From positions 52,925 through 84,924 of the forward strand of contig JALVPN010000165.1 of NCBI GenBank assembly GCA_027031765.1: DNA of 32,000 bases. The letters are read 5' to 3'. Both the position numbers and the translations under genes were made by a program. The DNA comes from Promethearchaeota archaeon (GTDB taxonomy: Archaea; Asgardarchaeota; Thorarchaeia; Thorarchaeales; Thorarchaeaceae). How positions within the stretch are numbered: the stretch's first letter is position 1; every line of letters begins with the position of its first letter. Shown piece by piece: positions 1 to 12,655 of the stretch. Under the pieces are notes generated by a model, which ran no database searches, was not told the DNA's origin, and saw only the letters and a program-made list of their open reading frames with translations.

Positions 1-2
1 TG

Positions 3-62
3 GATGATGAAATCAGGGAACTGATACTACAAATTGATGATGTACTTGGCCAGTCATCGTAA
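3..62 (+). CDS. Possible 3' end of a gene entering from the left (…DDEIRELILQIDDVLGQSS*)
   Basis: Frame 3 is open from the window edge to TAA at 60-62 and reads like an amphipathic helix. Too short to identify. Confidence 0.35.
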   Translation, partial: DDEIRELILQIDDVLGQSS

Positions 63-571
63 CCACTGGGTTTCCTACAATCTATGCCAAGAGTCGAACC
101 GGATTCCAACGGCCTCCACTCGGTTCAAATGTTAGGGCACGCGCGTATCAACTTGGGAGAGCACCGACCACCAAGTTCGGTGTTGAGTGTTGCAAAGAGA
201 ACACAGTTTGGGACGGTACAAGCCTACTCAAACCTACTCGTACCGGGTTCCTAAATGTCCAGGCCTAGGCGTGGAGTCCGTCCGAACCAGTGAACAGCTG
301 TTTCCACTTGTTGTGTTCTGTCGTTGTCCGGCTCATTATGCGATTGCCAATGCAGCCTAGCGGCGGCCCTGAGATTCCCCGACGCACGGCCCCATTGCCT
401 TAGGTGGATTGGTTCTGTTGGGCACATGCATGTGCCCTTGCCCTCTTGGTCATTCTACGGAGAAACATGCATCAACACTTGCTACCCGGTCGCACTTCTG
501 GTTTTGTTCATTGTTCCCAGCTGAACGGAACAAGACCATTCATGGTGGAGTTTCAGAGCCATAGCAGTGAA

Positions 572-2329
572 TCACTTCCAGCGCTTCCTTGCGTACTCAA
601 CAATCTTCCTTAGGTCATCGATGCCAGTCGTTCTAGCCCCTTCTCTGATATACAGAATCTTCTTCTGTTTCTTCAGCATCAAGACCGGTTCATCTGCCGG
701 TCTTACGTCAACACGACAGATTTCTTTGTCGTCAACTTGTGGAAACGTGGTGCGGAAAAACTGTCGGAACATACCTTGGACTTGGCTGTTGAACTTCTGA
801 GTCAAGGATCTGTCAAAGGTATCGGAGCTTGGTTCGTGATGAAAGCAGGAGTAGTCTCGCTCTAGGCCAAGTATCTCCCCGTCATTCCCGACTCCGATAA
901 GGAGTACACCGCCATCCGAGTTCATGAATGCGCAGATTGTCTTTATCACGGGGTCGTATAATTCACTATTCTTCCCTTGGAGATTGTAGTCCCACAACAT
1001 CGATGACTTGAACTCGATGAACTGGGACTCCCCCATCTCTATCAACTCCTCGACAGTGGCCCGTTGGACTCTCTCAAGTGATGGTGCCCTTGGCCTTGTG
1101 TAGAGGTACAGTGCCGCGCATAGCACGGCAAGTGCCACGCTCCACTCGATGACGCGGTAGACAACCATTTGCAGCCTGGTTGTGGGCAAGAATGACTTGG
1201 GCACTCTGATAATGTATCCGTTCGTCGTTCCAAGATATAGATGGCCACGATCGTATCCCGGAATGAGGATTGACTCAAGAACTTCAGGATACCGGCCCAT
1301 TGTGAGCTCTTCCCTGCTAATCATTGGAGTGACTGACTGGGCATTGTCATCCAAGTCGATGTATGCAAGTCCCAATGCTGTGACCACATACAACCGCTTG
1401 AGGTCTACATCGATGTCAATAGCGTTCACAACTCTCGATGGCAATCCGTCATCACTCGTCAGGCGAGAACGAACTAACGTTGCGCTAGTTCCGTTCTCGT
1501 CGAAGATGAATAGTCCCTCATTTGTCCCTATGTAGATTCTATGGGTGAGTTGGTAGTAGTCTATGCAACTGACACTTAGAGGGTTCCCTACATCGTCTTG
1601 GATATGGCTGAAGTTCACGCCGGTTCTCAGATTGAAGAACGCAAAACCCCTGCCTGTGCCAGCAAGAAGGCAGTCACCACGCACTTTGAGCGACCGTACA
1701 TTGTTTGAGGGCAGACCATTCTCAGTTGTGATGTTTCGGGTTTGATACGTGGATGGAGCGTACTCAACAACCCCGATCTGCTCGCTTCCAAGGTACAATA
1801 CGGTGTCTGATCCATTACGGAATGTTTCAATGTCCCGAAACTCTACGTCCTCTCCTATGTTTGGGATTCGGATGGGATCGAATACTACTCGCTGGTTCTC
1901 ATAGGACCAGTGCATCCAATAGGCTCCTCCATCTGGTCCATCCGTGACCACGTAGCTTAGCCATCTATCCCATGTTGTTCCCATATCGTATACTCTGCTG
2001 CCACCTGTTGCACTGTCAACTGAATGAGGCCCAGATACAGAGTTGTTAGAGAGGTTGACATAGTAGAGACCGCCTATTCCGTTGAAGGCTATCATAGACT
2101 CGGCAGCATCGAGGAATATCATTGGCCTGATGCTGTACCCCGGGAAACCATTATCTACATGTGTCCACTGCAGGTCCTCAGAGGCTGGCTGAACAAGCCA
2201 TCGGTCAACACTGGCCGTAGCAGGGAATACCACCATGAATACTATCACAAGCCTGAGGAATCGCTTGTCAGACCTTAGTTCTCCGAGTTTCGCAAACACT
2301 CCTCCTTGTGCTTTTGTTCTGCCCATCAT
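572..2329 (-). CDS. Receptor-like membrane protein: N-terminal export signal/anchor, beta-propeller ectodomain, TM helix, C-terminal Schlafen/AlbA_2 domain
   Basis: Hydrophobic RFLRLVIVFMVVFPATAS; two-component-regulator-propeller-like repeats ITTENGLPSNNVRSL and LTSDDGLPSRVVNAI; TM VIEWSVALAVLCAALYLY; AlbA_2 motifs LIEMGESQFIEFKSS and IKTICAFMNSDGGVLLIGVGNDGEILGLE. Start placed at ATG 2329, which overlaps the upstream TGA (ATGA). The track ORF starts at 2389. Confidence 0.85.
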   Translation of the reverse strand: MMGRTKAQGGVFAKLGELRSDKRFLRLVIVFMVVFPATASVDRWLVQPASEDLQWTHVDNGFPGYSIRPMIFLDAAESMIAFNGIGGLYYVNLSNNSVSGPHSVDSATGGSRVYDMGTTWDRWLSYVVTDGPDGGAYWMHWSYENQRVVFDPIRIPNIGEDVEFRDIETFRNGSDTVLYLGSEQIGVVEYAPSTYQTRNITTENGLPSNNVRSLKVRGDCLLAGTGRGFAFFNLRTGVNFSHIQDDVGNPLSVSCIDYYQLTHRIYIGTNEGLFIFDENGTSATLVRSRLTSDDGLPSRVVNAIDIDVDLKRLYVVTALGLAYIDLDDNAQSVTPMISREELTMGRYPEVLESILIPGYDRGHLYLGTTNGYIIRVPKSFLPTTRLQMVVYRVIEWSVALAVLCAALYLYTRPRAPSLERVQRATVEELIEMGESQFIEFKSSMLWDYNLQGKNSELYDPVIKTICAFMNSDGGVLLIGVGNDGEILGLERDYSCFHHEPSSDTFDRSLTQKFNSQVQGMFRQFFRTTFPQVDDKEICRVDVRPADEPVLMLKKQKKILYIREGARTTGIDDLRKIVEYARKRWK

Positions 2330-3228
2330 ACAGCCCCCAGAAACCATAGAACAGCATAGGTTGCATTTATCGTGGCATGTAGAGCCCATGGTTGTGTCAG
2401 GTTCTCAGACAAAAGCCACACCATACCCAGCAGAATCCCTAGCCCAAACCTCGTTATGAACGCCGCAAGAACCGAACCTACCGGATCGAAGATATTACCA
2501 ACGTACTGGGCGTTAGTGAACAGATGACAAACCGCAAAGAGAGAAGAAGCTAGCAACAGCCCTATGGGCTTGCTCCGGAATCTCTCGGACAGGCGCTGTT
2601 GGACTATAGCCCTGTTGACCAGCTCCTCGACAAATCCAATAATGACCCCTCCGTAGACCACTAGTCCCATGAGCCCGACTAATCGCTCAGGGCTGGCAAG
2701 GGTTGGGAATTGGTCAATGACCGGCAACAATCGAATTCCAAAGGATATCATGATTACTACCAGCAGGAAGATAGGCAGGCTACTGGTCCTCCAAGGTTCT
2801 CCACCTCGGATTCCCAGTGATTCCAATGAGTAGCCAAAACCACGCCAGAAGATCACGGCAATCGCCAGACCTGTAAGGAGAATGGCAATGCTGGCAGAAA
2901 GGATGTCAAGGCTTGGAAAGAAACTGAAGAACCACCATCCAACATCGAGATAGATCACTAAAGCGAGTACTGCCTCTTCAATAGGGTTTCTAGACAGCTT
3001 CTCAGGTCGCTTCAGGTGCTGGCTGTGACTCCACAGAAGTGCGCTGCATCCAATGACATTCAATGCCCCAAGCACGACAATGTATGATTCAGAATACATG
3101 ATTGCATATGCCAAACTCGAGGATGTCACCAGAGCCGCCAAGAGAATGATCGCCTTGATATCGCGAGGGTTCAGTTGAGTTTGTTGCTCCTCTGCCACCT
3201 TCGTCACCCCTGCTGGGTGACCCCCCAT
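2326..3228 (-). CDS. CPBP (CAAX protease/Abi) family intramembrane glutamic endopeptidase
   Basis: Multiple TM helices and all three family motifs: FVEELVNR (EExxxR), FAVCH (FxxxH), HATIN (HxxxN). Start uncertain: ATG 3228, GTG 3198 behind GGGGTGA, or 3318. Confidence 0.9.
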   Translation of the reverse strand: MGGHPAGVTKVAEEQQTQLNPRDIKAIILLAALVTSSSLAYAIMYSESYIVVLGALNVIGCSALLWSHSQHLKRPEKLSRNPIEEAVLALVIYLDVGWWFFSFFPSLDILSASIAILLTGLAIAVIFWRGFGYSLESLGIRGGEPWRTSSLPIFLLVVIMISFGIRLLPVIDQFPTLASPERLVGLMGLVVYGGVIIGFVEELVNRAIVQQRLSERFRSKPIGLLLASSLFAVCHLFTNAQYVGNIFDPVGSVLAAFITRFGLGILLGMVWLLSENLTQPWALHATINATYAVLWFLGAV

Positions 3229-3343
3229 CTCCCCAAAGAAAAAGCTTGTGCGTCTGAAGCAGCACCATACAGCTCTCGAGTTGGTGGTCTGGCGAGTCTT
3301 CCCGTGCAAAGGACTCAAATACTAAGGCAGCTTAGTACTAATC

Positions 3344-4705
3344 ATGATTAGTAAATTCATCGACCGTGACGCCGAGCTCTCTCTGCTTGAAAAGGAGTGG
3401 AGGGGGCATGGTGGGAAGCTCTTGGTCCTGTACGGTCGAAGGCGGGTTGGCAAGACCAGACTCCTAGCTGAGTTCGTCCAAGGAAAGGATGGCGTGTTCT
3501 ATATTGCGAGCGACTCATCACCGCAAGTCCAGATTGAAGAGCTCAAGACGAGAGTTGCGGACTTCCTCAACGATGCGTTGCTGAGAGACCTTGAACTCAA
3601 GAACTGGGAGCAGTTCTTTGAGTATCTTACGAGGAATCTGCCGTCCAAGAGGTTCTATCTCATACTGGATGAGTTCTCCTATCTTGTCAAGAGCGATCGG
3701 ACGATTATCAGTGTTTTGCAAAGGGTATGGGACAGAGTCTTGTCAAATTCCAAGGTCTTCTTGGTACTGTGTGGATCGGTAATGGGCCTAATGAGGGATG
3801 AGGTGCTCTCCTCGGCATCTCCTCTGTATGGTCGGCGAACAAGGGACATCCTACTGAGGGACTTGCCATTCAAGCACGCAAGAGAGTTTGTTTCCTTCCC
3901 GTTTGCGGAGGCAATGCAGCTGTACTTTGCAGTTGGCGGCGTACCGGAGTATCTGCAGAAGGCATCAGAGTACCACAGCATGAATGAGTTTCTCAGCCGG
4001 GAGTTCTTCAGCACCACGGGATACTTCTATCGCGAGCCGTATTTCATAGTGTCACAGGAGTTCAGGGAGCTGAGAATCTACTTCTCGATTCTCAATGCTA
4101 TTGCCACCGGGAGAACACGCCCGACCGACATAGCCAACTTTGTGGGGATTAACGCCCGAAGCGTATATCCGTACCTGGAGGGGCTCATTCGGATGGACTT
4201 TGTCAAGCGGGAGATACCCGTTCTTGGGAGCCCCAAGCGAGGCGTCTACCGGATCAAGGACTCCCTCCTTGACTTTTGGTTCGGCTTTGTCTTTGGCCAT
4301 CGGGATGAGATTGAGCGGGGCTCACTGAACCTAGACAACCTGGATCTGTCAGCCTACTATGGGAGGCGATTCGAGGAGTTCGTGAGGAGTGAGGTCGTCC
4401 ACCTGCTGTTCAACTACACCAAGATGGGACGATGGTGGCATCGTGGTGAGGAGATCGACATTGTTGCGGTGAACGACTCTGCCAATGAGATACTCTTCTG
4501 TGAGTGCAAGTGGAGCGACCTCAAGAAGAGGGAGGCCGAGCAACTCATTCAGGGCTTGCAGCAAAAGGCGAGGCTCGTGAGCTGGGGCACGGAATCAAGG
4601 GTGGAGAGATTTGGCGTGGTCGCACGTAGAGTGCGGGGAAAGGAGGGCCTCCGAAGTCAGGGCTATGTCGTGTACGATCTGCAGGACATCAAGAGTGTGC
4701 TGTAA
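3344..4705 (+). CDS. Archaeal AAA ATPase with winged-helix and C-terminal DUF234 PD-(D/E)XK domain
   Basis: KFIDRDAEL, Walker A YGRRRVGKT, Walker B LILDEF, C-terminal WWHRGEEIDIVAV…FCECKW. Confidence 0.92.
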   Translation: MISKFIDRDAELSLLEKEWRGHGGKLLVLYGRRRVGKTRLLAEFVQGKDGVFYIASDSSPQVQIEELKTRVADFLNDALLRDLELKNWEQFFEYLTRNLPSKRFYLILDEFSYLVKSDRTIISVLQRVWDRVLSNSKVFLVLCGSVMGLMRDEVLSSASPLYGRRTRDILLRDLPFKHAREFVSFPFAEAMQLYFAVGGVPEYLQKASEYHSMNEFLSREFFSTTGYFYREPYFIVSQEFRELRIYFSILNAIATGRTRPTDIANFVGINARSVYPYLEGLIRMDFVKREIPVLGSPKRGVYRIKDSLLDFWFGFVFGHRDEIERGSLNLDNLDLSAYYGRRFEEFVRSEVVHLLFNYTKMGRWWHRGEEIDIVAVNDSANEILFCECKWSDLKKREAEQLIQGLQQKARLVSWGTESRVERFGVVARRVRGKEGLRSQGYVVYDLQDIKSVL

Positions 4706-5700
4706 CCATTGACCCATCACGTTTCGGGAGGATGCGTTTCACGCATGGCCTATGCTCCCCGCTATCCGCAAGAACATACAGTATCACCCCCTATCCTCAC
4801 TGTTGAGCTGCACAACACGCATTGGGGCAAGTGACCTCAGTCCACATGGCGGTGAGATTGAGAATCGGGAGCTACGCCTCCAGAATTGTTTCTGAGAGTC
4901 GTGGCAAGTCCTTCAACTTTGACAAGCGTTGAATTGCCGAGTCCGACCTCCACACAGTTGAAGTGGAACACAATGGTCAGTCTTGGTATCTGCAGGTATG
5001 TCTTCCGGTGGGCTCGTCGCTTGATGGATATGTTCGTCTTCTCAAGCCACCTATCACTACTGGTCCAATCCAACAGATTCTGACGAAGTCTATGAAGGTC
5101 AATCCAGTGAGTGGTTCACGAACACTCTACATTTGCGAGATTCGAGTCTGCAGCACAGATGCTCAAGGCAGAGTCCACTGTCACCAAGTGAAGTTCAGTG
5201 AGCCGTATCCCCCCACTTTGAGCCTCCTGTTGCCGGCTATGGTACAACATGGGGATGGTTCACCCTGCCGCTACTGACGTGTGGTCTTCCCGCGTGTCCA
5301 GAAAACCAGTATGCGGCCACACAGTACACACTAGGTGGGGTCACCGCCTGCGACGCGCGACACGGGCCATAGGCCCCAGATATACCCGCTCACTCCACCC
5401 GGCCACCGGTGTGACCGTCCTCCGTGCCTCCAACAAACATATCCAACACCACTACCATGGTCACACCTCCTGCAAGACCGTTGTCCATAATACGCTCCAC
5501 TACCATGTTAAGACTCTCGTACGGGGGCTCGTGGGCGTCCACTGGGGCTGGTAGGCCAGAACCGACACGGATGCGCAACAGGGGGCGAAGCACAGACAGA
5601 AGAGCACTCAGACCAAGTGCCACGTGGGCGCTCTGCCTCGCCCTTGCTACTGTGTGACCACACAGGCGGGTAGATGGTGGATTGGTGTCAAGTGGCTGTT

Positions 5701-5940
5701 TCACCTCGGATCCCGGACTGGATTGTCGAGTGGAGCGCCCCCAGTGGGCCCCTCCCTGTGCGCCCATCCGCTCGCCCAGGCCGAGGCCGGGCTCTCGCCC
5801 TCACAGACACGCAAGCCAGTCATGTATGTCGCCCAGATGAGCAGCAGCGCACCATACTCCTCCGCACCGATAACCCGCAACCGGTCGCCCGCACTCCGCA
5901 GCACCCGAACCGCCCCCTCCAGCACCGCTACCGCACCGGC
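5701..5940 (-). pseudogene. Tyrosine recombinase/integrase remnant (first catalytic Arg box only)
   Basis: GALLLIWATYMTGLRVCE resembles the (L)LLY.TGLR.SE box. No HxxR or Tyr motif found downstream, and no upstream part of the gene. Confidence 0.4.
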
Positions 5941-6240
5941 ATGGTCACCACTCTCCCACTGACCGGGTCGTGTGCCAGCCTCCCAAGCCTCACCTCGAAC
6001 CGCTTCAGTTTTCTCAGAGTCTCCATGAAACGCTCGTGATTGCAGAATCTTCTACGCTCCTGTTCTGTTGGCGTTTCACCCTGGTATGGCATGCAATCGT
6101 AAACGTATGTCCTCAGACGTTCAAAGCCTTCACACACCGCTTCAGAGAACTTCACGAAATCGATACGCGGCTCATTGAAACAGTGCTTGAGAACCTTCGC
6201 AAAAAAACCCCAAATCTATCATGACTGCTGCCCGGTCCAA
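5928..6240 (-). pseudogene. NYN (LabA/DUF88-like PIN-fold RNase) gene, frameshifted and 3'-truncated
   Basis: DRAAVMIDLGFF continues as AKVLKHCFNEPRIDFVKFSEAVCEGFERLRTYVYDCMPYQ…FEVRLGRL after a shift at a T7 run (A7 on the + strand, 6201-6207). The expected QKxVD/SGDxD half is absent. Confidence 0.8.
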
Positions 6241-6452
6241 CCGCTGTTGTCCTCTAATGATATCTGACCGCCGCCCTCTCGAACGACAGCACGAATTTTC
6301 TGTGGCGCGTTGTTGGCGCCCTGACTTAAAGGTCATTGCTGCTGAGTATCTGACGAATTCATTGCTGACACACATGGCTCCGGACTGTGCTGCTGACGGT
6401 TGTCCATCATGTCAGTCACAGGGGCAGTCTGCATCATGTCTGGCTGTGGGAA

Positions 6453-6686
6453 CTATGCATCTGTGGTCTCAAACCTGAGATGCACCGTTCCCCCACAGTA
6501 CGGACACTCAGCGCTTGTTGGCCCCGTCCACCGAACAGTCTTGGTACTGATCTTGGCGCAACAACTTGTGCAGTATGCCGGGATGTGTGGTATCACAATC
6601 ATTGGCTCTCTGCCCTTGGCAGGGGTCACGGTCCTACTCCTCACGCCCCTCGCTCTCGACTCTCTTCTTCGTCCGCCGCAGCCCAT
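6453..6686 (-). CDS. Small Zn-ribbon protein (77 aa)
   Basis: MGCGGRRR…IPAYCTSCCAKISTKTVRWTGPTSAECPYCGGTVHLRFE has two CxxC pairs. ATG lies 4 nt after the stop of the upstream gene. Confidence 0.65.
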   Translation of the reverse strand: MGCGGRRRESRARGVRSRTVTPAKGREPMIVIPHIPAYCTSCCAKISTKTVRWTGPTSAECPYCGGTVHLRFETTDA

Positions 6687-6690
6687 TGTC

Positions 6691-7674
6691 CTATCGGTCT
6701 GACGCGAGCCGCCGCTTCGCGATGACCGCCACAAAGACGATGGCACCCGCTGCTACGACAGTTCCTGCAGTGACGGGACCAAGCATTGGGTTGGTGATCT
6801 CACTAGTGTTGTTTGCTGTCGTTGTGTCTGTTGTTTCGGTCGATGTTGTGGTGCTGTTCGTGGTCACAGTGTCCCATATGGACTGCTGGAGAATGAAGAG
6901 CAGCGTCCCATTTGACGTATAGTGAAAGTATGTCGGCCAAGCCTGTATGCTCTCATGATCCTGTGCTGTGAGGTTGAATGCTGCAACGGACCATGTTGGC
7001 CTCAAGAGCATCTCCTTTGTGTAGAAAGGTGCCTTGTATATGCAGAACATGGTCGCCGACTCCGTCGGGTCAGTGAGATACTCTGGGTCCGCACCCGGAT
7101 AGTACATCGGATAGCCCGGAAGTGGTCTGTGAGTGGTCGGACTGATGAGCACCAGTGAACGAATCCTTGCCTCGGCCAATGTAGTCCTGAGAACCTCTAC
7201 GTGAGAGCACTCCAGATCATCCAGTGTGACTGTCTGGGTCCTGACCACTCTCCTAGTCAGGGTCCCATTGTCTTGAGAACAGCGGTACGTCACGATCAGT
7301 TCGATGAAGTACGTCTGATTGAAGCCCCATACAAACAAGGGATGTTCTCCAGGCAGAGAGTAGCCTGCAATCTCAAAACCCGAGCTCAAGTGGGAGAGTG
7401 GCCGAACTGCATCAACAAGTGACTGGTTGGTCATCAGGTCTGGTACTCTCTCTTCCATCATTTCCGTCACATTAACTACTTCGTACTCATACGACGCTCC
7501 GTCTATGGTGATATTGAGCGAGGCTGAAGGCCCCACTTCTGCTGTGTCACAGTATGTGCCATCAACTGTATGCATTGACTCCGAAGCGACGGGATACGGC
7601 AGAATGGTGGTTAAGGTCAACACCAGAGCAAACATGAGTGCAATAGCCCATTGTCTGTACACGTACACTCGCAT
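6691..7674 (-). CDS. Secreted, C-terminally membrane-anchored hypothetical surface protein (paralog A)
   Basis: Signal peptide, many NxS/T sequons, Thr-rich linker, C-terminal TM plus basic tail (VAVIAKRR). Clearly paralogous to 8178-9173. Confidence 0.9.
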   Translation of the reverse strand: MRVYVYRQWAIALMFALVLTLTTILPYPVASESMHTVDGTYCDTAEVGPSASLNITIDGASYEYEVVNVTEMMEERVPDLMTNQSLVDAVRPLSHLSSGFEIAGYSLPGEHPLFVWGFNQTYFIELIVTYRCSQDNGTLTRRVVRTQTVTLDDLECSHVEVLRTTLAEARIRSLVLISPTTHRPLPGYPMYYPGADPEYLTDPTESATMFCIYKAPFYTKEMLLRPTWSVAAFNLTAQDHESIQAWPTYFHYTSNGTLLFILQQSIWDTVTTNSTTTSTETTDTTTANNTSEITNPMLGPVTAGTVVAAGAIVFVAVIAKRRLASDR

Positions 7675-7680
7675 ATCCTC

Positions 7681-8085
7681 CTAGTACCGGTTTGGCCCTA
7701 CGTAGGCCACCATGTGCCTGACATCGCCGCCGTACCTGGGGTGGACGGGGTTGTACTGAGATGGGAGAAGAAGCCCGTCTGTGGGATCCTTGTCGTATGG
7801 GGAGTTGGATTGACCGTCGAGGCCATCGTCAAGGCAAGACCATATCTGGAAGAACCTGTAGCCAAAGTTCACACGGTAGTATGCTGTCTGGTTCCAGAGG
7901 TGAAGCGTGGGATCCGCGTGGATCCATGTCCACTCTGAGCCATCATGCTGTTCCCACGTATTCCAGAACCAATCAAACTCCTGCGGGTCGTATGAGTCCC
8001 AGCCCCACAAGGTGAGAGAACTCAACCAGTTGCTGTCCAGCACTGTCTTCGTCTTTCTCTCCACGTTTATCTGAATGGCGGTCAC
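7681..8085 (-). pseudogene. C-terminal fragment of a second transglutaminase-like gene copy
   Basis: From WGWDSYDPQEFDWFWN onward it aligns with the C-terminus of 9180-10758 (offset 1499 nt). It keeps WIHADPT but lacks the Cys and His motifs. The first ~25 codons are unrelated. Confidence 0.75.
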
Positions 8086-8177
8086 TTCACACCGCTCCTA
8101 TACCACAATGCACAGTTGTGTTCGCCAGTGGACTCACCTGACATTGCGTGGCCTATGAGTGCAATGGTACTGCAGCG

Positions 8178-9173
8178 TCATGAGTTTCCTCGCCTCGACC
8201 TTGCCAGTATTGCGACTGCCATGAAGGTGACGGCCACTGAAACAGTTCCTACAATGACGGGATTAGGCAATGGGTTGACAATCTCACTAGTGTTGTTTGC
8301 TGTTGTTCTGTCTGTTGTTTCGGTTGATGTTGTGGTATCACTTGTTGTTGTGGTACAATTCGTGACTGGTGGGCAGAGTGGAATCTGTTCAAGGATAAGG
8401 AGTAACGTTCCGTTTGATGTATAGATGAAGAGTACTGGCCAAGCTCTTGTGTTGTTGTCTAGTGGTGCCGTGAGGTTGTAAGCCATGACAAACCATGTCG
8501 GTTCAAGAAACATCTCCTTTGTGAAGAAGGACGCCCTGTACATGCAGGCCCAACCCCACTCACTCGGGTCGGTGAGGTTCCCTGGGTCACGGCCGAGCTC
8601 GTAGAGTGGGTAGCCTGGAAGAGGTCTGTGAGTGATTGGACTGACGAGCTCTAGCGAACGATTCCTTGCCTCGACCAATGTAGTCCTGAGAATCTCTATG
8701 TGAGAGCACTCTAAATCATCCAGCGTGATTGTCTGGATTCCAACCACTCTCCGTACAAAGCTCCCGTTGTCTTCGGAACAGCGGTACGTTACTACCAGCT
8801 CGATGAAGTCTGTCTGATTGAACCCCCATACGGAGATGGTGTGTTCACCTGGCCAGTAGTAGCCCGTACCTGCAAAGCCAGAACTCATGCCTGAGAGTGG
8901 CCGAACTGCATCAACAAGTGACTGGTTGGTCATCAGGTCTGGTACTCTCTCTTCCATCATTTCCGTCACATTAACTACTTCGTACTCATACACTGTTCCG
9001 TTTATGGTGATGTTGAGCGAGGGCGAAATGCCCGTGTCTGCCTCGCCACTCTCCTTGCCACCGCTTGTTGGGGGTGAATCTGGGGCAACGGGATATGGTG
9101 AAACGGCAGCCAATGCCAATAGTAGAGTAACCATGAGCACCGCAACCGGGTATCTGAGTATGTACATTAACAC
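8178..9173 (-). CDS. Secreted, C-terminally membrane-anchored hypothetical surface protein (paralog B)
   Basis: Same architecture as 6691-7674, with shared blocks such as YEYEVVNVTEMMEERVPDLMTNQSLVDAVRPLS. Confidence 0.9.
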   Translation of the reverse strand: MLMYILRYPVAVLMVTLLLALAAVSPYPVAPDSPPTSGGKESGEADTGISPSLNITINGTVYEYEVVNVTEMMEERVPDLMTNQSLVDAVRPLSGMSSGFAGTGYYWPGEHTISVWGFNQTDFIELVVTYRCSEDNGSFVRRVVGIQTITLDDLECSHIEILRTTLVEARNRSLELVSPITHRPLPGYPLYELGRDPGNLTDPSEWGWACMYRASFFTKEMFLEPTWFVMAYNLTAPLDNNTRAWPVLFIYTSNGTLLLILEQIPLCPPVTNCTTTTSDTTTSTETTDRTTANNTSEIVNPLPNPVIVGTVSVAVTFMAVAILARSRRGNS

Positions 9174-9179
9174 ATCCTC

Positions 9180-10758
9180 CTAGTACTGGTTTGGTCCTGC
9201 GTAGTCTATTGTGTACTTGACATCCCCTCCATACTTGGGGTAGAGCGAGTTGTAGTGATATGGGAGGAGAAGCCCATCTGTGGGATCCTTGTCGTAGGCG
9301 GAAACAGATGGGTCGTTGAGTTTGTCGTCGAGGCAAGACCATATCTGGAAGAACCTGTAGCCAAAGTTCACACGGTAGTATGCTGTCTGGTTCCAGAGGT
9401 GAAGCGTAGGATCCGCGTGGATCCATGTCAACTCTGAGCCATCATGCTGTTCCCACATATTCCAGAACCAATCAAACTTCTGCGGGTCATCTGGATCCCA
9501 GTCCCACGAGGTGTACGGGTTCTGGTATTCGAGTTCCCAGACTCTCCATGCGTCAACACGGGAGTACTGTTGCGCATTCTCATGCCACAACAGGCAGTTC
9601 TCCCACCATTGGTTCACAACGCTCCATATCTCACACCACGCGTGGGAGCTGGCTCTCACGTCTGTACCAAACATCTGTCGAGCCGGTATCCCCATTGACC
9701 TCAGCAATGAGATCTCCATATTCGATATTTCATCGCACATTCCCTCCCATCCTTCAGATATGATTCTCAAGTCCGACATTGAACACTCTGTCCGGTAAGC
9801 TGGCGTACCACTGCGAATCATCTTGTGATCTACGCAATACGTCATAATGACTGCTGCCCCACTGACATAAGGCACACGATAGTCGTCAAGAAGATTTGCT
9901 GCGGCCCACCTAATGTTCCAGTCATCGCTGTGGAACAGGGCATACTGGTCTGGAATACCGAATCCATCGATGCTCCTGAGGCCCTCCCAGTAGTAGTCTG
10001 AATTGTTCGAGGCCTGCGACATGACATCCGCTGGTGGGGGAGTTGGCAGGTCGCTCGAACCAAAGGTCTGCACGAAATTGTATCCAAAGTCCTTGTAGAA
10101 CACTGCAGCACCAACGCGCGCCACACCTCTCTTCACACCCACCGATGTCAGTGGAACCGTCACCTTCAGGTCCTTGGAACCGTAACCGTGTATGACACGC
10201 ATTGAACCTGACACCGAGAACTCCTCTCTGTAGACCTCACGGGTTTCAAGGTCATACCCCTCGAACGTTACTGGGTAGGTTCCGGGTCTGTCACTGTCGG
10301 TCACACACTGGAACCTTATTGTCAGAGTCTTGCCTCTAGTCCAGACACTCGGCACTGTTACCCAGAAGTAGACCTCATGAAATCCCCTCGTGTTCGCATT
10401 ATCGATGAGTCCGGCGCTTCTCAAGCGGGTGATAATCTCCTTGAAGCCCGGCATGGGGGCGGTCTTAGTATGCACGCGACGCAGGTCGACTCCCATGGAC
10501 GCAAGGATGTCCTCGGGGACATTTGTCGCGACAAGGCATGGTCCAAGATCCTCATCAAGGAACACGGATGGCGCCTCTCTCAGTGGTCTTGTTGTCCCTC
10601 TCGGGACCGGACAATCAGACGAACCGGCAAGAGGCACTACCTCTTGGGGGGGGGAGTGCATGAGCATCAGGACTGCTCAGTGCAGGCATCCCGGCAAAGC
10701 TAGAAACCACGAAGACACAGGTCACCACACAGGTGACCAGATACCGTTTGACAAGCAT
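9180..10758 (-). CDS. Secreted transglutaminase-like (papain-fold Cys-His-Asp) protein, frameshifted at a C9 tract after the signal peptide
   Basis: GMCDEISNMEISLLRSMGIPAR (Cys), SHAWCEIW (His), WIHADPT (Asp). Signal peptide MLVKRYLVTCVVTCVFVVSSFAGMPALS from ATG 10758 is in a different frame, and C8 instead of C9 would join it to the 495-aa ORF. Confidence 0.85.
10646..10654 (-). repeat. C9 homopolymer (G9 on + strand) at the frameshift site
   Basis: Read directly: ctctt-GGGGGGGGG-agtgca. Confidence 0.95.
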
Positions 10759-11009
10759 CCTACTCACGATCTCACCGACAGAGTATTGCTGACAGAGCAT
10801 ATAAGAGTTCTGTGGCCAGAGCAGGAGATGGGGCCGACTGGTTCTCTCTGTTGGCACTCTCGGGACTCAACGCTTATCATATCTAGGCGTCTGGTGGTTC
10901 ATTTTCCCTCACTGGCCTCTTCGGTCCGGACACTCTCTCCGTGGGCGGACTGACTGCGCCACCACAAGTCTTAATGATATGCCAGAGGATCGTGGTGACG
11001 GTGTCCAGC

Positions 11010-11474
11010 ATGAGAACCAAGTCGAGATACCCTGAGGTCATCGAATATCATGCCACATCAGACTGGGATGGCAAGACTGGTGGCACAGCCACTGTGGGCG
11101 AGGGACGCACGATTGTCTACGACACACCGACGACCTACGGTGGGAACGGTCAGGGAATCTGTCCTGACGAGATGTTTGTGGCTGCCATGCTCGGGTGTCT
11201 CAACAACACGTTCTTGGACTTCCAGCGCCGCTTTGAACTCGAACTAATCTCCATGAGGCTTGAGGGAAAGGCAGTGGCGCGGTTTGACAGTGAGGGTTAT
11301 ACAGTCACCGGGTTGCAGGTGCGCGACGAGGTTGTTGTGGAATAGGGTGGACTTGAAGTCGCCGAGCGGTGCGTTCAGCTGATGAAGAAGTACTGCCACC
11401 TGTCGCGCACGATCAAGGGCTGCCTCCCGTTTGAGTTCGATGTCAAGGTGCGCGAGGTCAAGCAGGAGTCTTGA
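11010..11474 (+). pseudogene. OsmC/Ohr family protein interrupted by an in-frame TAG (11343-11345)
   Basis: PDEMFVAAMLGCLNNTF (first Cys) precedes the TAG. The same frame continues 42 codons, GGLEVAERCVQLMKKYCHLSRTIKGCLPFEFDVKV (second Cys motif), to TGA at 11472-11474. Confidence 0.8.
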
Positions 11475-11826
11475 TCCTCAGTTCGTCCATCAGTTCAAGT
11501 ATCTTCTCCATGTACCGTGTCATGTTCGTCCAGTAGGCCCCCTGAAAGTATACTGCATTGCATCTCTCGCAGAGCCAGAACACATCATAGTGTTTGTAGG
11601 TCTGTTCGAACACGAGATCCTTGACCCTTCTCCGTTCGTCACCCCGGAGTTCCACAAGCTCGCCATTGCACTTGGAACATCTCGCCCTTGACTCGTCTAT
11701 CACCGGTTCTATCCCGAACTCCATGAACACCTTCGCCACGCCCTCATCTACACTTCCCCTCACAAGCATGGCTGGAACACCGCTGATCGTGCTCTCTATC
11801 TCCAGCTGACTCACGAATGCTTGCAA
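11458..11826 (-). pseudogene. Mut7-C RNase (PIN-like with Zn ribbon), C-terminal part only
   Basis: RARCSKCNGEL…FWLCERCNAVYFQGAYW matches the Mut7-C Zn ribbon. The N-terminal PIN half (D.MLG.LA.WLR..G.D) is missing and is replaced by HerA sequence. Confidence 0.75.
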
Positions 11827-12655
11827 CTAGGTCCTCCCGCCCCCATGTCCTGCCCCTAAGCTCTCCAAGCGCTCGTCGCAACAAGCTTCTCTGTTTTACT
11901 GCATTCATGGGAATCTTGAGTATCGAGAAGTAGTCTCTGGTTGCAAAGCTGTTGCATCTGAGCCTGAGTGGCCAAATGCCATCGTTGCCACCCCGATTCA
12001 CAGAGAACACGACAGCACGGTCTCCGAGATCCTCCTGCATCGCCACGTATTCGTCATGGGGATCCACAATCACAATGGCAGCGCCGAGTTCCAACATCCG
12101 AGACGTAATGACTGCCACCGTGTTGCCCTTCCCACCACCTGTAAGCGACAATACTGCAAGATGCCTTGTAACAAGCTTTCCCACATCAAGTTTCACTCTT
12201 ACGCCCTCATGTCCCATCAAACTTCCAATCTCGATATGACCCACCGAAAAGATCCTGCTCAGCAGTCCTGATGATGCTCTTGTAACCCTTGCTCTAGGCC
12301 GTGGCGAGAACCTAGGTGACACAATCTTGCCGTCTTCATCGATGTAGCCCACAACCTGTGCCTTGGCTGTAAGGACTTCGCCATCATGCAGGTCGCTGAT
12401 ACTAAGAAGAGTGGCGAACTCCTCTGGCCCCGTCAGGATTGACTCCGGCATGTTGAGGTTGACAAGTCCTATGTCTGTGACACGGGCCAACACTGGGTCG
12501 GTGACGTTTCGATTTGCGTATGTAATTGCCAAGTAGTCCCCCAGTCTGAGGGGATTACTCTCAGCAGTGGCTGCATCAAGTCTGACAACTACCTCCCTAG
12601 GTGTTGTGGTTCCCAAGAGGTTTCCTATCACGTGCTCCTTCGTCACTATATACAA
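11744..12655 (-). pseudogene. herA: HerA-family helicase/translocase, N-terminal ~290 aa only
   Basis: HAS-barrel-like N-terminus, RHLAVLSLTGGGKGNT (Walker A) and IVIVDPHDEY. No Walker B (DEAH) or arginine-finger region. Runs into the Mut7-C sequence in another frame. Confidence 0.8.

Follow-up and report, generated by a model that had tools for sequence, protein, structure and literature searches.

What does a gene pair do that joins a cell-surface propeller and a Schlafen-type domain in one membrane protein and sets an intramembrane protease gene against it? The question arises from a locus in a 32,000-nt stretch of DNA, hereafter the window, from a Promethearchaeota archaeon of the Thorarchaeaceae (assembly GCA_027031765.1, contig JALVPN010000165.1, positions 52,925-84,924 of the forward strand). 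The ORF map contained both reading frames named in the original prediction, namely the sensor-effector gene (572-2329) and the gene for a CPBP/Rce1-like glutamic intramembrane protease (2326-3228), both on the minus strand, as are all features described below within them. The stop codon of the CPBP gene (TGA, 2328-2326) overlaps the first ATG of the sensor gene (2329-2327), and the ATGA overlap at 2326-2329 is thus present in the sequence as claimed. Translation from this ATG yields a sensor of 585 aa; the database gene call (P0001) uses the ATG at 2326-2324 and yields 584 aa. The CPBP gene starts at the ATG at 3228 and is separated from a divergent ATPase gene by an intergenic region (3229-3343, ORF map and sequence) that is a promoter region by position only. 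The locus is a rare Asgard two-gene unit consisting of a propeller/TM/Schlafen membrane protein and a CPBP protease, and no description of this combined architecture was found in the literature.

The domain order of the sensor-effector was established from the ORF, Pfam, an AF2 model and homologs, among them three full-length proteins with 33-46% identity (P0002-P0004). Hydropathy and the AF2 model revealed a genuine N-terminal hydrophobic helix (residues 22-45; 2195-2266) behind a K/R-rich N-terminus, which accounts for the export signal proposed earlier. This helix may be either a signal peptide that is cleaved or a signal anchor that is kept; it is followed by a Pro and a small-x-small stretch, and its P36 is invariant across the four closest homologs. 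The same methods placed a TM helix at residues 384-411 (1097-1180), with a V-P motif directly before it that is invariant in the family and an Arg-rich juxtamembrane stretch behind it, predicted to be cytoplasmic. No invariant Cys was identified before the TM helix in the homolog alignments. Hydropathy and charge indicate that both helices are flanked cytoplasmically by K/R-rich segments, and N-glycosylation sequons are about 4-fold denser in the ectodomain (1.8 per 100 aa) than in the cytoplasmic part (0.4 per 100 aa). The positive-inside rule on both flanks and the sequon-dense ectodomain together support a cytoplasmic rather than an outside location of the AlbA_2 domain.

Between the two helices lies a predicted extracytoplasmic, seven-bladed beta-propeller of the Reg_prop type (residues 54-377; 1199-2170), assigned by profile search, Foldseek and sequons. 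The propeller ectodomain of the original prediction was borne out by an indirect route: Pfam Reg_prop gave no match to the sensor protein at E < 0.1 and sub-threshold matches to its relatives, and a profile built from the ectodomain matched 9,435 proteins, including proteins of 1,000-1,450 aa that Pfam scored as Reg_prop (E 6e-37 and 6e-26). The AF2 model displayed about seven four-stranded blades (mean pLDDT 75, with blades 4-7 at 82-92). Its best PDB match in a Foldseek search was 4a2l, the periplasmic sensor of the hybrid two-component system BT4663 (E 4e-12), and the propeller class is the one used in hybrid two-component sensors, as had been supposed. Both proteins have a TM helix after an extracytoplasmic propeller. 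However, the window sensor has a single propeller with the TM helix right after it, whereas the BT4663 chains are 745-750 aa, about twice as long, and Pfam found none of the Y_Y_Y, histidine-kinase, receiver or AraC modules of hybrid two-component systems in the window sensor, where AlbA_2 is the sole cytoplasmic domain.

The cytoplasmic part is a single-lobe AlbA_2/Schlafen-core domain (residues 418-583; 581-1078), as judged by Pfam, a domain model, Foldseek and a profile search against the PDB. Pfam SLFN_AlbA_2 (PF04326) matched residues 434-568 (E 2.2e-18; 67.3 bits, cut-off 25.3), and the domain ends the protein with no ATPase appended, as originally described. The domain model reached a pLDDT of 97, and its best 36 Foldseek matches in the PDB all had the AlbA_2/Schlafen fold, with SLFN5, SLFN11, SLFN12, SLFN13, SLFN14, SAMD9, DIP2311 and a RecG-related AlbA_2 domain among the fold matches. 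In the search against the PDB, the profile matched SLFN11 (E 3.7e-12) and aligned with both lobes of SLFN11, SLFN12 and SLFN14; the closest relatives of the domain include DUF262-AlbA_2 fusions. An Ex4ExK catalytic motif (E434, E439 and K441; 1007-1030) was identified by translation and alignment; it is invariant among 35 subfamily members and aligns with ESxxxEFK of SLFN11, SLFN13 and SLFN14. The third catalytic Asp column, which corresponds to D248 of SLFN13 and D252 of SLFN11 in the motif GVxD, is occupied by Asp in at least 90% of the 35 relatives, including the three closest orthologs. Alignment to the SLFN chains showed that the window protein reads GVGND here, with Asn in the column and Asp one position on (N482-D483; 881-886); P0044 and P0016 also carry Asn. 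The domain is a putative nuclease, and because of Asn482 at the third site the window copy may be weakened or regulated differently.

The partner gene encodes a protein of 300 aa with about nine TM helices (Pfam, hydropathy and loop charges). Pfam assigned it to the Rce1-like family (PF02517; E 7.4e-14, 52.2 bits against a cut-off of 22.4); no match to the PrsW family was found in the Pfam scan. The three motifs reported earlier are intact in the translation and the partner alignment, namely motif 1 EExxxR (EELVNR; E201, E202 and R206; 2611-2628), motif 2 FxxxH (FAVCH; F231 and H235; 2524-2538) and motif 4 HxxxN (HATIN; H284 and N288; 2365-2379). E201, E202, R206, H235, H284 and N288 are invariant in all eight partner CPBPs, down to 25% identity. 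K/R residues in the loops number 12 on the side predicted to face inward and 1 on the outer side, which by the positive-inside rule gives an N-in topology and predicts that the catalytic Glu/His/Asn set sits at the cytoplasmic leaflet.

Linkage of the two genes was then counted across homologs, and the proposed pairing held. A same-strand CPBP neighbour was present in 9 of 10 testable cases (the window gene, P0002, P0003/G073, P0004, G038, G012, P0034, P0044 and G077), at identities of 25-46% and in differing wider neighbourhoods; in G077 the order is flipped, with the CPBP gene downstream of the sensor. The one case with no CPBP neighbour, P0037, is likewise missing the N-terminal helix and is perhaps a decayed copy. 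No CPBP gene was found within 3 kb of propeller-only relatives with short tails. The host genome holds 6 CPBP genes in 2.95 Mb. Strong matches to a partner-CPBP profile (at least 235 bits) occurred in exactly the five genomes with a full-length sensor among the 87 genomes of the order, the next best match reaching 92 bits. Among 400 genomes of the phylum the sensor was restricted to one family, where it was found in 5 of 86 genomes belonging to 5 genera, one genome each and never twice in one genus. Pairwise distances of sensor and CPBP were correlated (Mantel r 0.50; 85 of 5,000 permutations reached this r).

Complex prediction for the sensor and CPBP gave a score of 0.66, compared with 0.00 for the best of 3 controls. 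Among 80 solved complexes 58 attained this mark, compared with 2 among 110 mismatched pairs, counts that serve only as a rough calibration because custom alignments were used for the sensor-CPBP prediction. The runs shared at least 79% of contacts, with a partner pLDDT of at least 82. In the predicted interface, TM1 of the CPBP protein (residues 21-44; 3097-3168), which lies in a subfamily-specific N-terminal extension, runs parallel to the N-terminal helix of the sensor, for which it is the predicted docking site, and the outer CPBP loop 243-251 contacts the sensor TM helix along its outer half, and also a conserved R-E-E loop of the propeller. In this prediction the extra first TM helix of the CPBP protein is docked on the two helices of the sensor, and no sensor segment lies in the active site; such helix-bundle docking outside the active site is as compatible with a stable partner as with a substrate. 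Taken together, conserved adjacency, identical phyletic distribution and a complex prediction that passes its controls support the sensor and CPBP protein as a functional unit.

The surroundings of the pair were examined with Pfam and PADLOC-DB 2.0. The 3' end of an OLD-family nuclease gene (ABC ATPase and TOPRIM; 1-62, plus strand) lies tail-to-tail with the sensor gene; the upstream DNA shows that it starts before the window and encodes Pfam AAA_15 and OLD-like_TOPRIM domains, with PADLOC matches to GajA (E 8e-32) and Old (E 6e-30). On the other side, the divergent gene (3344-4705, plus strand) encodes an ATPase_2 and DUF234 protein (Pfam E 6e-25 and 1.7e-22) that matches the PADLOC candidate defence family PDC-S27 (E 5.6e-43). 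Both the OLD/GajA-like nuclease and the PDC-S27-like ATPase lie at most 3 kb from the pair. GC content was 0.48-0.51 from the OLD gene to about window position 4000 and 0.54 at 4001-5000, where the ATPase gene ends, compared with 0.56-0.60 in the flanks. Homolog loci contained an LmuA-like nuclease domain (E 2.6e-10) and a PNP-type effector (E 4.7e-33) by PADLOC; of the homolog loci examined, only about half had defence-like neighbours. No PADLOC-DB 2.0 family matched the sensor or the CPBP protein at E ≤ 0.01. Two relatives, P0034 and P0036, have in place of the cytoplasmic AlbA_2 domain one that appears to be PLD-like, judged only from language-model features and predicted-structure similarity; the cytoplasmic domain of P0036 also matches the PADLOC candidate PDC-S05. 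This apparent exchange is of the effector-swapping kind typical of defence systems. A role in defence is consistent with the genomic island, with the patchy occurrence of the pair and with the exchange of nuclease-type domains in the cytoplasm.

We consider the two-gene locus to be a surface-sensing, membrane-embedded conflict module, most likely antiviral, in which the protease gates the nuclease, and assign this reading a probability of about 0.5. We infer its defence role, trigger, cleavage and cleavage site, activation by pairing and substrate as follows. The sensor-effector would sit in the membrane with its propeller outside and its single-lobe Schlafen-type nuclease domain in the cytoplasm, docked through its N-terminal helix and TM helix onto the additional helices at the N-terminus of its own CPBP protein. 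At rest, the nuclease domain would be kept at the membrane as an inactive monomer. A surface cue such as virion contact, envelope damage or a glycan would alter the propeller, upon which the CPBP protease would cleave the juxtamembrane segment behind the TM helix. The released domain of about 170 aa would then pair and cut tRNA, rRNA or other nucleic acid, halting growth or virus replication. A narrower version, in which the pair is a Thorarchaeota transmembrane immune receptor whose propeller detects a virion or envelope insult and whose CPBP proteolysis frees a Schlafen tRNase (a PLD-type nuclease in sister systems), is tentative and in our view rather doubtful. PrsW/RsiW-type proteolysis and IRE1-type receptor RNases likewise relay an outside or lumenal signal over a single TM helix to an effector in the cytoplasm, through cleavage or pairing. 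The window sensor would have this logic in common with them, but it has no sequence relationship to anti-sigma factors or IRE1. Of the interpretation first put forward, the functional gene pair, topology, propeller type and fit with defence stood, and the likeness to eukaryotic receptors was reduced to an analogy of logic, not homology.

To our knowledge, nearly all characterised prokaryotic defence systems detect infection from inside the cell. If the preferred reading is true, the combination of an extracellular sensor, a dedicated intramembrane protease and a nuclease effector would be a different way of detecting attack; in the narrower version, it would be a prokaryotic defence system with its sensing outside the cell and would join Notch-like or IRE1-like receptor logic to an effector family of animal antiviral immunity. 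The CPBP family is, as far as we know, very widespread with few targets known, and the pair would offer, for one prokaryotic member, a concrete candidate substrate in a 1:1 relation. With a Schlafen-core effector in an Asgard host, the module bears on the extent to which components and logic of eukaryotic innate immunity already existed in archaeal relatives of eukaryotes, and because AlbA_2 and PLD-like domains apparently alternate on an unchanged sensor-protease scaffold, the idea can be tested directly by domain exchange.

The nearest described effectors are the prokaryotic Schlafens (pSlfn). According to the main text of the study describing them, Schlafen domains bearing Ex4(E/D)xK serve as phage-activated tRNase effectors joined to a range of sensors, 69.6% of prokaryotic Schlafens have a known defence gene no more than 10 kb away, and a DUF262-AlbA_2 architecture was shown to defend (PMC13056530). 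The window sensor resembles RorSlfn5 (Ig-like sensor and Slfn) and EcoSlfn7 (DUF262 and Slfn), as presented there, in its AlbA_2 effector, variable fused sensor and defence-island setting (PMC13056530). In contrast, the pSlfn proteins described in that text sense phage proteins intracellularly, while the window sensor is predicted to be extracellular with a TM helix between sensor and effector, and the main text makes no mention of a membrane, a propeller or a protease (PMC13056530). The window module further differs in its dedicated CPBP gene, its archaeal (Asgard) host and the Asn in place of the third acidic residue.

The best surviving alternative, which we regard as possible but considerably less probable than protease gating, keeps the same conflict module and makes the CPBP protein a stable accessory subunit (an assembly factor, an allosteric regulator or a trimmer of the N-terminal helix), with activation by ligand-driven pairing of receptors that joins two single-lobe AlbA_2 domains at the membrane in the manner of IRE1 or receptor kinases. 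The predicted docking of CPBP TM1 on the sensor helices, away from the catalytic residues, agrees with this, as does the match of the AlbA_2 profile to both lobes of eukaryotic Schlafens: their nuclease domains are built from two AlbA_2-like lobes, so a domain with just one plausibly depends on a partner for the other. There is also precedent in the CPBP proteins Abx1 and CflP, which form a complex with the membrane sensor CovS through TM contacts and tune it, with their catalytic residues dispensable (PMC13692083). However, Abx1 and CflP act independently of these residues and are not encoded beside a fused effector (PMC13692083), whereas in the window pair the genes are translationally coupled and the catalytic set is invariant in the eight partner CPBPs, which is hard to square with a purely structural role.

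Ordinary signalling rather than defence is an unlikely explanation; here a membrane-tethered nucleic-acid-binding regulator would sense a glycan or polymer, and proteolysis would free it to alter expression. The best structural match of the propeller is indeed a glycan-sensing HTCS domain, AlbA_2 has long been annotated as DNA-binding, the homologous domain of SAMD9 binds DNA (7ksp), and the Asn at the third catalytic site of the window copy might leave a domain that binds but does not cut. The Ex4ExK motif is nevertheless invariant, relatives exchange AlbA_2 for PLD-like domains of nuclease or phosphodiesterase type, and no carbohydrate-utilisation genes lie near the pair, which instead shares a low-GC island with genes for an OLD nuclease and a PDC-S27-like ATPase. 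The scatter of the sensor over 5 of 86 genomes, never twice per genus, also argues against this explanation.

Still less probable is maturation of a surface protein, in which the CPBP protein, sortase-like in the manner of a myxosortase, would cut by the membrane helix to shed or re-anchor the propeller and leave the cytoplasmic domain as a by-product or quality-control handle. The model for such a reaction is MrtX, a CPBP protein of the MrtX/MYXO-CTERM system whose substrate is a surface receptor that it cleaves by a membrane helix, at a motif, TM helix and Arg-rich tail (PMC11980579), and the invariant V-P motif before the sensor TM helix is in keeping with it. The window CPBP protein also matched NCBIfam myxosortase families, but weakly and far below the cut-offs (MrtS 21.5 against 130, MrtJ 18.3 against 75 and Mrt_core 17.4 against 100 bits). 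Unlike MrtX substrates, the sensor has no Cys signature, with no invariant Cys ahead of its TM helix, and its tail is a conserved enzyme-like domain of 170 aa rather than a short Arg-rich stub. Sortase systems use one enzyme for many substrates, whereas protease and candidate substrate are paired 1:1 here, and the short-tailed propeller-only relatives have no CPBP gene within 3 kb.

That the two genes are functionally unconnected neighbours by descent alone is very improbable: all genome-derived full-length homologs come from one archaeal family, so that shared ancestry contributes to the adjacency, but the adjacency persists to 25% identity in differing neighbourhoods and with flipped order, the phyletic patterns of sensor and CPBP protein are identical, their start and stop codons overlap, and the complex prediction passes its controls.

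Two co-directional genes on the minus strand of the window were revealed by ORF listing, with the sensor gene downstream of the gene for a CPBP/Rce1-like glutamic intramembrane protease (CPBP). The CPBP gene (window 2326-3228, minus strand) encodes 300 aa from the ATG at 3228, and the sensor gene (window 572-2329, minus strand) encodes 585 aa from the ATG at 2329; the public gene call of the sensor starts one codon later and yields a 584-aa product (P0001). The ATGA overlap of the original prediction was read at 2329-2326, where the CPBP stop codon overlaps the sensor start codon. Translation confirmed all three CPBP motifs that had been described as intact (EELVNR, FAVCH and HATIN) and revealed the sequence ESQFIEFK in the AlbA_2 domain of the sensor, which ends with this domain and, as claimed, carries no appended ATPase. 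Pfam assigned SLFN_AlbA_2 to sensor residues 434-568 (E 2.2e-18) and an Rce1-like domain to residues 217-319 of the product of the upstream gene (E 7.4e-14); the two matches lie well above the curated cut-offs.

The linkage of the two genes was examined in homologs of the sensor. Full-length relatives were very rare: a word-index search of 5.8 billion proteins identified three, and an exhaustive search of representatives gave about ten clusters. A CPBP gene lay directly upstream on the same strand for P0002, P0004, P0003 (genome G073), P0034, P0044 and the relatives in genomes G038 and G012, and directly downstream on the same strand, after a 34-nt gap, for P0036 (genome G077). At the P0037 locus no CPBP neighbour was detected by Pfam, tblastn or the partner HMM; P0037 is without the N-terminal helix, possibly a remnant, and may be a decayed or rewired copy of the family. 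When the window was included and P0046 was left out because its contig ends at the gene, CPBP adjacency held in 9 of 10 testable cases, and the neighbours were otherwise different. The genome of the window carries six CPBP genes in 2.95 Mb, and the estimated chance that a CPBP gene immediately adjoins any given gene is well under 1%.

The distribution of the two genes was then compared. The full-length sensor was present in five of the 87 genomes of the order and, among 400 genomes of the phylum, was limited to one family, with one genome in each of five genera. A profile of the partner CPBP scored 235-404 bits in exactly the five sensor genomes and 92 bits at best in the remainder of the 87; the five match by construction, and the informative part is that there was no strong match elsewhere. 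Sensor and CPBP distances were moderately congruent (Mantel r 0.50, a value reached by 85 of 5,000 permutations). Three controls were analyzed. Propeller-only relatives with short cytoplasmic tails had no CPBP gene within about 3 kb. The one bPH_2-AlbA_2 locus examined (P0005) had no CPBP neighbour and lay among housekeeping genes. The next-closest CPBPs of the order (52-64 bits to a partner HMM built from five full-length partners) had no comparable bitopic neighbour, and the sensor-CPBP pairing is thus specific to this clade.

Hydropathy analysis placed hydrophobic segments at residues 23-45 and 386-411 of the sensor. Modelling with AlphaFold2 (AF2) from four homologs (mean pLDDT 75) yielded a helix at 22-45, about 28 strands forming seven four-stranded blades at 54-377, a second helix at 384-411 and an alpha/beta domain at 418-583. 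The closest PDB match of the whole model was 4a2l (E 4e-12), the periplasmic sensor of the hybrid two-component protein BT4663, followed by generic WD40 propellers. Pfam Reg_prop gave no match on the sensor at E below 0.1, so the propeller was demonstrated by profile and fold. An ectodomain profile was searched against 1.84 billion representatives and, at E up to 0.001, matched 9,435 proteins, including multi-repeat proteins of 1,000-1,450 aa; the two of these that were scanned by Pfam contained Reg_prop at E 6e-37 and 6e-26. Indirectly, these matches bear out both the existence of the propeller repeats originally proposed for the sensor and the type to which they were assigned.

The predicted topology also agreed with the proposed placement of AlbA_2 on the inner side, with a K/R-rich N-terminus before helix 1 and a K/R-rich stretch after helix 2. 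Across 13 family members, the density of N-glycosylation sequons per 100 aa was 1.8 for the ectodomain and 0.4 for the cytoplasmic part; together with the flanking charges, this points to a cytoplasmic AlbA_2 domain. Residue P36, shared without exception by the four closest homologs, and the small-x-small stretch after it would fit signal-peptide cleavage of helix 1; in the model of the complex described below, helix 1 is predicted to serve as an anchor.

A model of the AlbA_2 domain alone, built from 35 relatives, reached a pLDDT of 97, and its 36 best PDB matches were all AlbA_2-fold proteins, among them DIP2311, the SAMD9 tRNase/DNA-binding domain, SLFN5/11/12/13/14 and a RecG-related AlbA_2 domain. 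The subfamily profile matched SLFN11 in the PDB at E 3.7e-12, as well as the CRISPR-associated Schlafen CbCash. Outside the sensor family, the nearest AlbA_2 relatives were the bPH_2-AlbA_2 membrane proteins. The Ex4ExK residues E434, E439 and K441 were invariant in the 35 relatives and aligned with ESxxxEFK of SLFN11, SLFN13 and SLFN14. In the eukaryotic active site, the second D of GVDD (SLFN13 D248 by chain-offset reading) supplies the third acidic residue. This column was Asp in at least 90% of the 35 relatives, including the closest orthologs of the sensor, which are canonical here; it was Asn in P0044, in P0016 and in the sensor itself (Asn482, adjoined by Asp483), so the window copy of the domain may be weakened.

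In two relatives, P0034 and P0036, propeller, TM helix and CPBP partner were all present, and the cytoplasmic domain was one other than AlbA_2 (residues 400-560 of P0034 and 415-589 of P0036, whose gene spans 5525-7348 of its locus, L021). Language-model features suggested that these domains are PLD-like (0.95 and 0.91 for P0034 and P0036, respectively), and the two have an H-x-R-x-L-I motif in common. The P0036 domain also appeared PLD-like by predicted-structure similarity (TM 0.72-0.77) and matched the PADLOC candidate PDC-S05 (E 6.4e-7).

The gene pair lies in a low-GC island of four genes, encoding an OLD-family nuclease, the sensor, CPBP and an ATPase_2 + DUF234 protein. Starting about 2 kb upstream of the window, GC content was 0.48-0.51 as far as roughly window position 4000 and 0.54 over 4001-5000, at the end of the ATPase gene; it was 0.53-0.60 upstream of the island and 0.50-0.60 (mean 0.564) downstream in the window. 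One edge of the island coincides with the start of the OLD-family gene, where GC drops from about 0.57 to about 0.48. This gene runs on the plus strand from the upstream DNA (L020 10455-11999) to window position 62, tail-to-tail with the sensor gene, and encodes an intact, stand-alone 535-aa nuclease (Pfam AAA_15 and OLD TOPRIM; PADLOC GajA, E 8e-32). The archaeal ATPase_2 + DUF234 gene (window 3344-4705, plus strand), which includes a winged-helix segment, is separated by 115 nt from the CPBP-sensor operon, from which it diverges, and matched the PADLOC candidate single-gene defence family PDC-S27 (E 5.6e-43). No PADLOC model matched the sensor or CPBP. Scans of window 1-12000 and 1-7000 for tRNA genes and Rfam families, respectively, detected neither an integration site nor an RNA element. 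The 509 nt between the convergent OLD-family and sensor genes (window 63-571) contain no long ORF, tRNA or Rfam match and presumably hold two terminators, though the segment is long for that.

Defence-like genes were also identified at other loci of the family. Downstream of P0044, at L018 3511-4966 on the minus strand, lie a metallo-beta-lactamase-fold gene and the gene for a 215-aa protein, one domain of which matched nuclease effectors of the LmuA/Avs1a type (PADLOC, E 2.6e-10). A PNP_UDP_1-type defence effector (PADLOC, E 4.7e-33) is located 1.5 kb from P0037 (L017 2043-3698). The P0002 locus gave a weak MazE match only. Taken together, the constant sensor chassis, the swapping of nuclease-type domains, the patchy distribution and the location in an island are the signature of a conflict system. 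In published work, prokaryotic Schlafen domains with Ex4(E/D)xK were shown to be phage-activated tRNases fused to diverse sensors, and the genes for these prokaryotic Schlafen defence proteins (pSlfn) to lie mostly within defence islands (PMC13056530).

We also analyzed the protease and its predicted contacts with the sensor. CPBP has about nine hydrophobic segments, and its loops carry 12 K/R on the predicted inside and one on the outside, which indicates that the N-terminus is inside and that EExxxR lies where its helix meets the cytoplasm. Eight partner CPBPs gathered from the homolog loci (25-39% identity) were aligned, and E201, E202, R206, F231, H235, H284 and N288 were invariant; the N-terminal 180 or so residues, with five predicted helices, fall outside the Pfam core and are specific to the clade. 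Prediction of the sensor-CPBP complex passed with a score of 0.66, compared with 0.00 for the best of three controls. Among solved complexes, 58 of 80 attained this mark, as did 2 of 110 mismatched pairs; these counts hold only roughly because our own alignments were used. At least 79% of contacts agreed between runs, and the partner pLDDT was at least 82. As no solved complex of this type is known to us, the prediction seems unlikely to have passed by reproducing an existing structure. In the model (P0001 numbering, one less than in the 585-aa product), CPBP TM1 (21-44) runs parallel to the N-terminal helix of the sensor (13-52), and an outer CPBP loop (243-251, VGNIFDPVG) contacts both residues 384-395, the outward-facing half of the sensor TM helix, and a propeller loop (339-342) bearing a conserved R-E motif. 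The predicted interface is a docking pose with no substrate in the active site, and it supports a dedicated sensor-CPBP complex, the role of catalysis apart.

We consider, with a probability of about 0.5, that the module serves in defence by sensing at the cell surface, with the protease gating a nuclease. Most likely, the sensor would rest docked to CPBP; a cue received by the propeller would be transmitted through the outer-face contact; the cytoplasm-facing CPBP active site would cut the sensor behind its TM helix; and the freed single-lobe AlbA_2 domain would pair and act as a nuclease. The architecture, linkage, co-distribution, context and domain swapping enter this sequence as observations and the complex as a prediction, and its other parts are inferred from the literature on CPBP proteases, Schlafen proteins and regulated proteolysis. 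The main rival is the same module with CPBP as a stable accessory subunit and activation by receptor pairing. It has a precedent in the complexes of Abx1 and CflP with CovS (PMC13692083), and we regard it as unlikely. The possibility that CPBP is, like CflP, a dead enzyme was set aside as the default reading in view of the invariant catalytic set. Less likely still is a regulator with no defence role that is freed from the membrane, and a myxosortase-like maturation system (PMC11980579) is less probable again, since the pair qualifies neither by the NCBIfam myxosortase-type models, which matched CPBP below threshold only, nor by the substrate signature.

Each part of the module comes from a known family, and Schlafen domains have already been published as defence effectors. 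What appears to be new is the receptor-like layout, in which a single TM helix joins an outer sensor to an inner nuclease, together with the obligatory CPBP partner and the exchange between AlbA_2 and PLD-like domains. A literature search found no paper joining Schlafen with a CAAX/CPBP protease, in so far as the texts were available and with the 55 pSlfn architectures (PMC13056530) outside the comparison.

Some further features were noted. In genome G012 (G012:C175), a short sensor relative (L023 3889-5172), which has an N-terminal anchor, a propeller and a C-terminal TM helix and ends in a tail of about 36 aa, is followed on the same strand by an overlapping OLD-family nuclease gene (L023 5105-6859; AAA_15 and OLD TOPRIM). 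This pair may represent the same idea with sensor and nuclease split between two proteins, or else a defence-island coincidence. Within the window, 8178-10667 (minus strand) contains a gene unrelated to the module, whose 495-aa product carries a transglutaminase-core domain (E 7.5e-9), followed by ORFs of no recognised family, of which 8178-9173 was scanned and gave no match. No RNA run was listed with the window sequence; its DNA was present in one sequencing run, a hydrothermal-vent metagenome that is probably the source sample.
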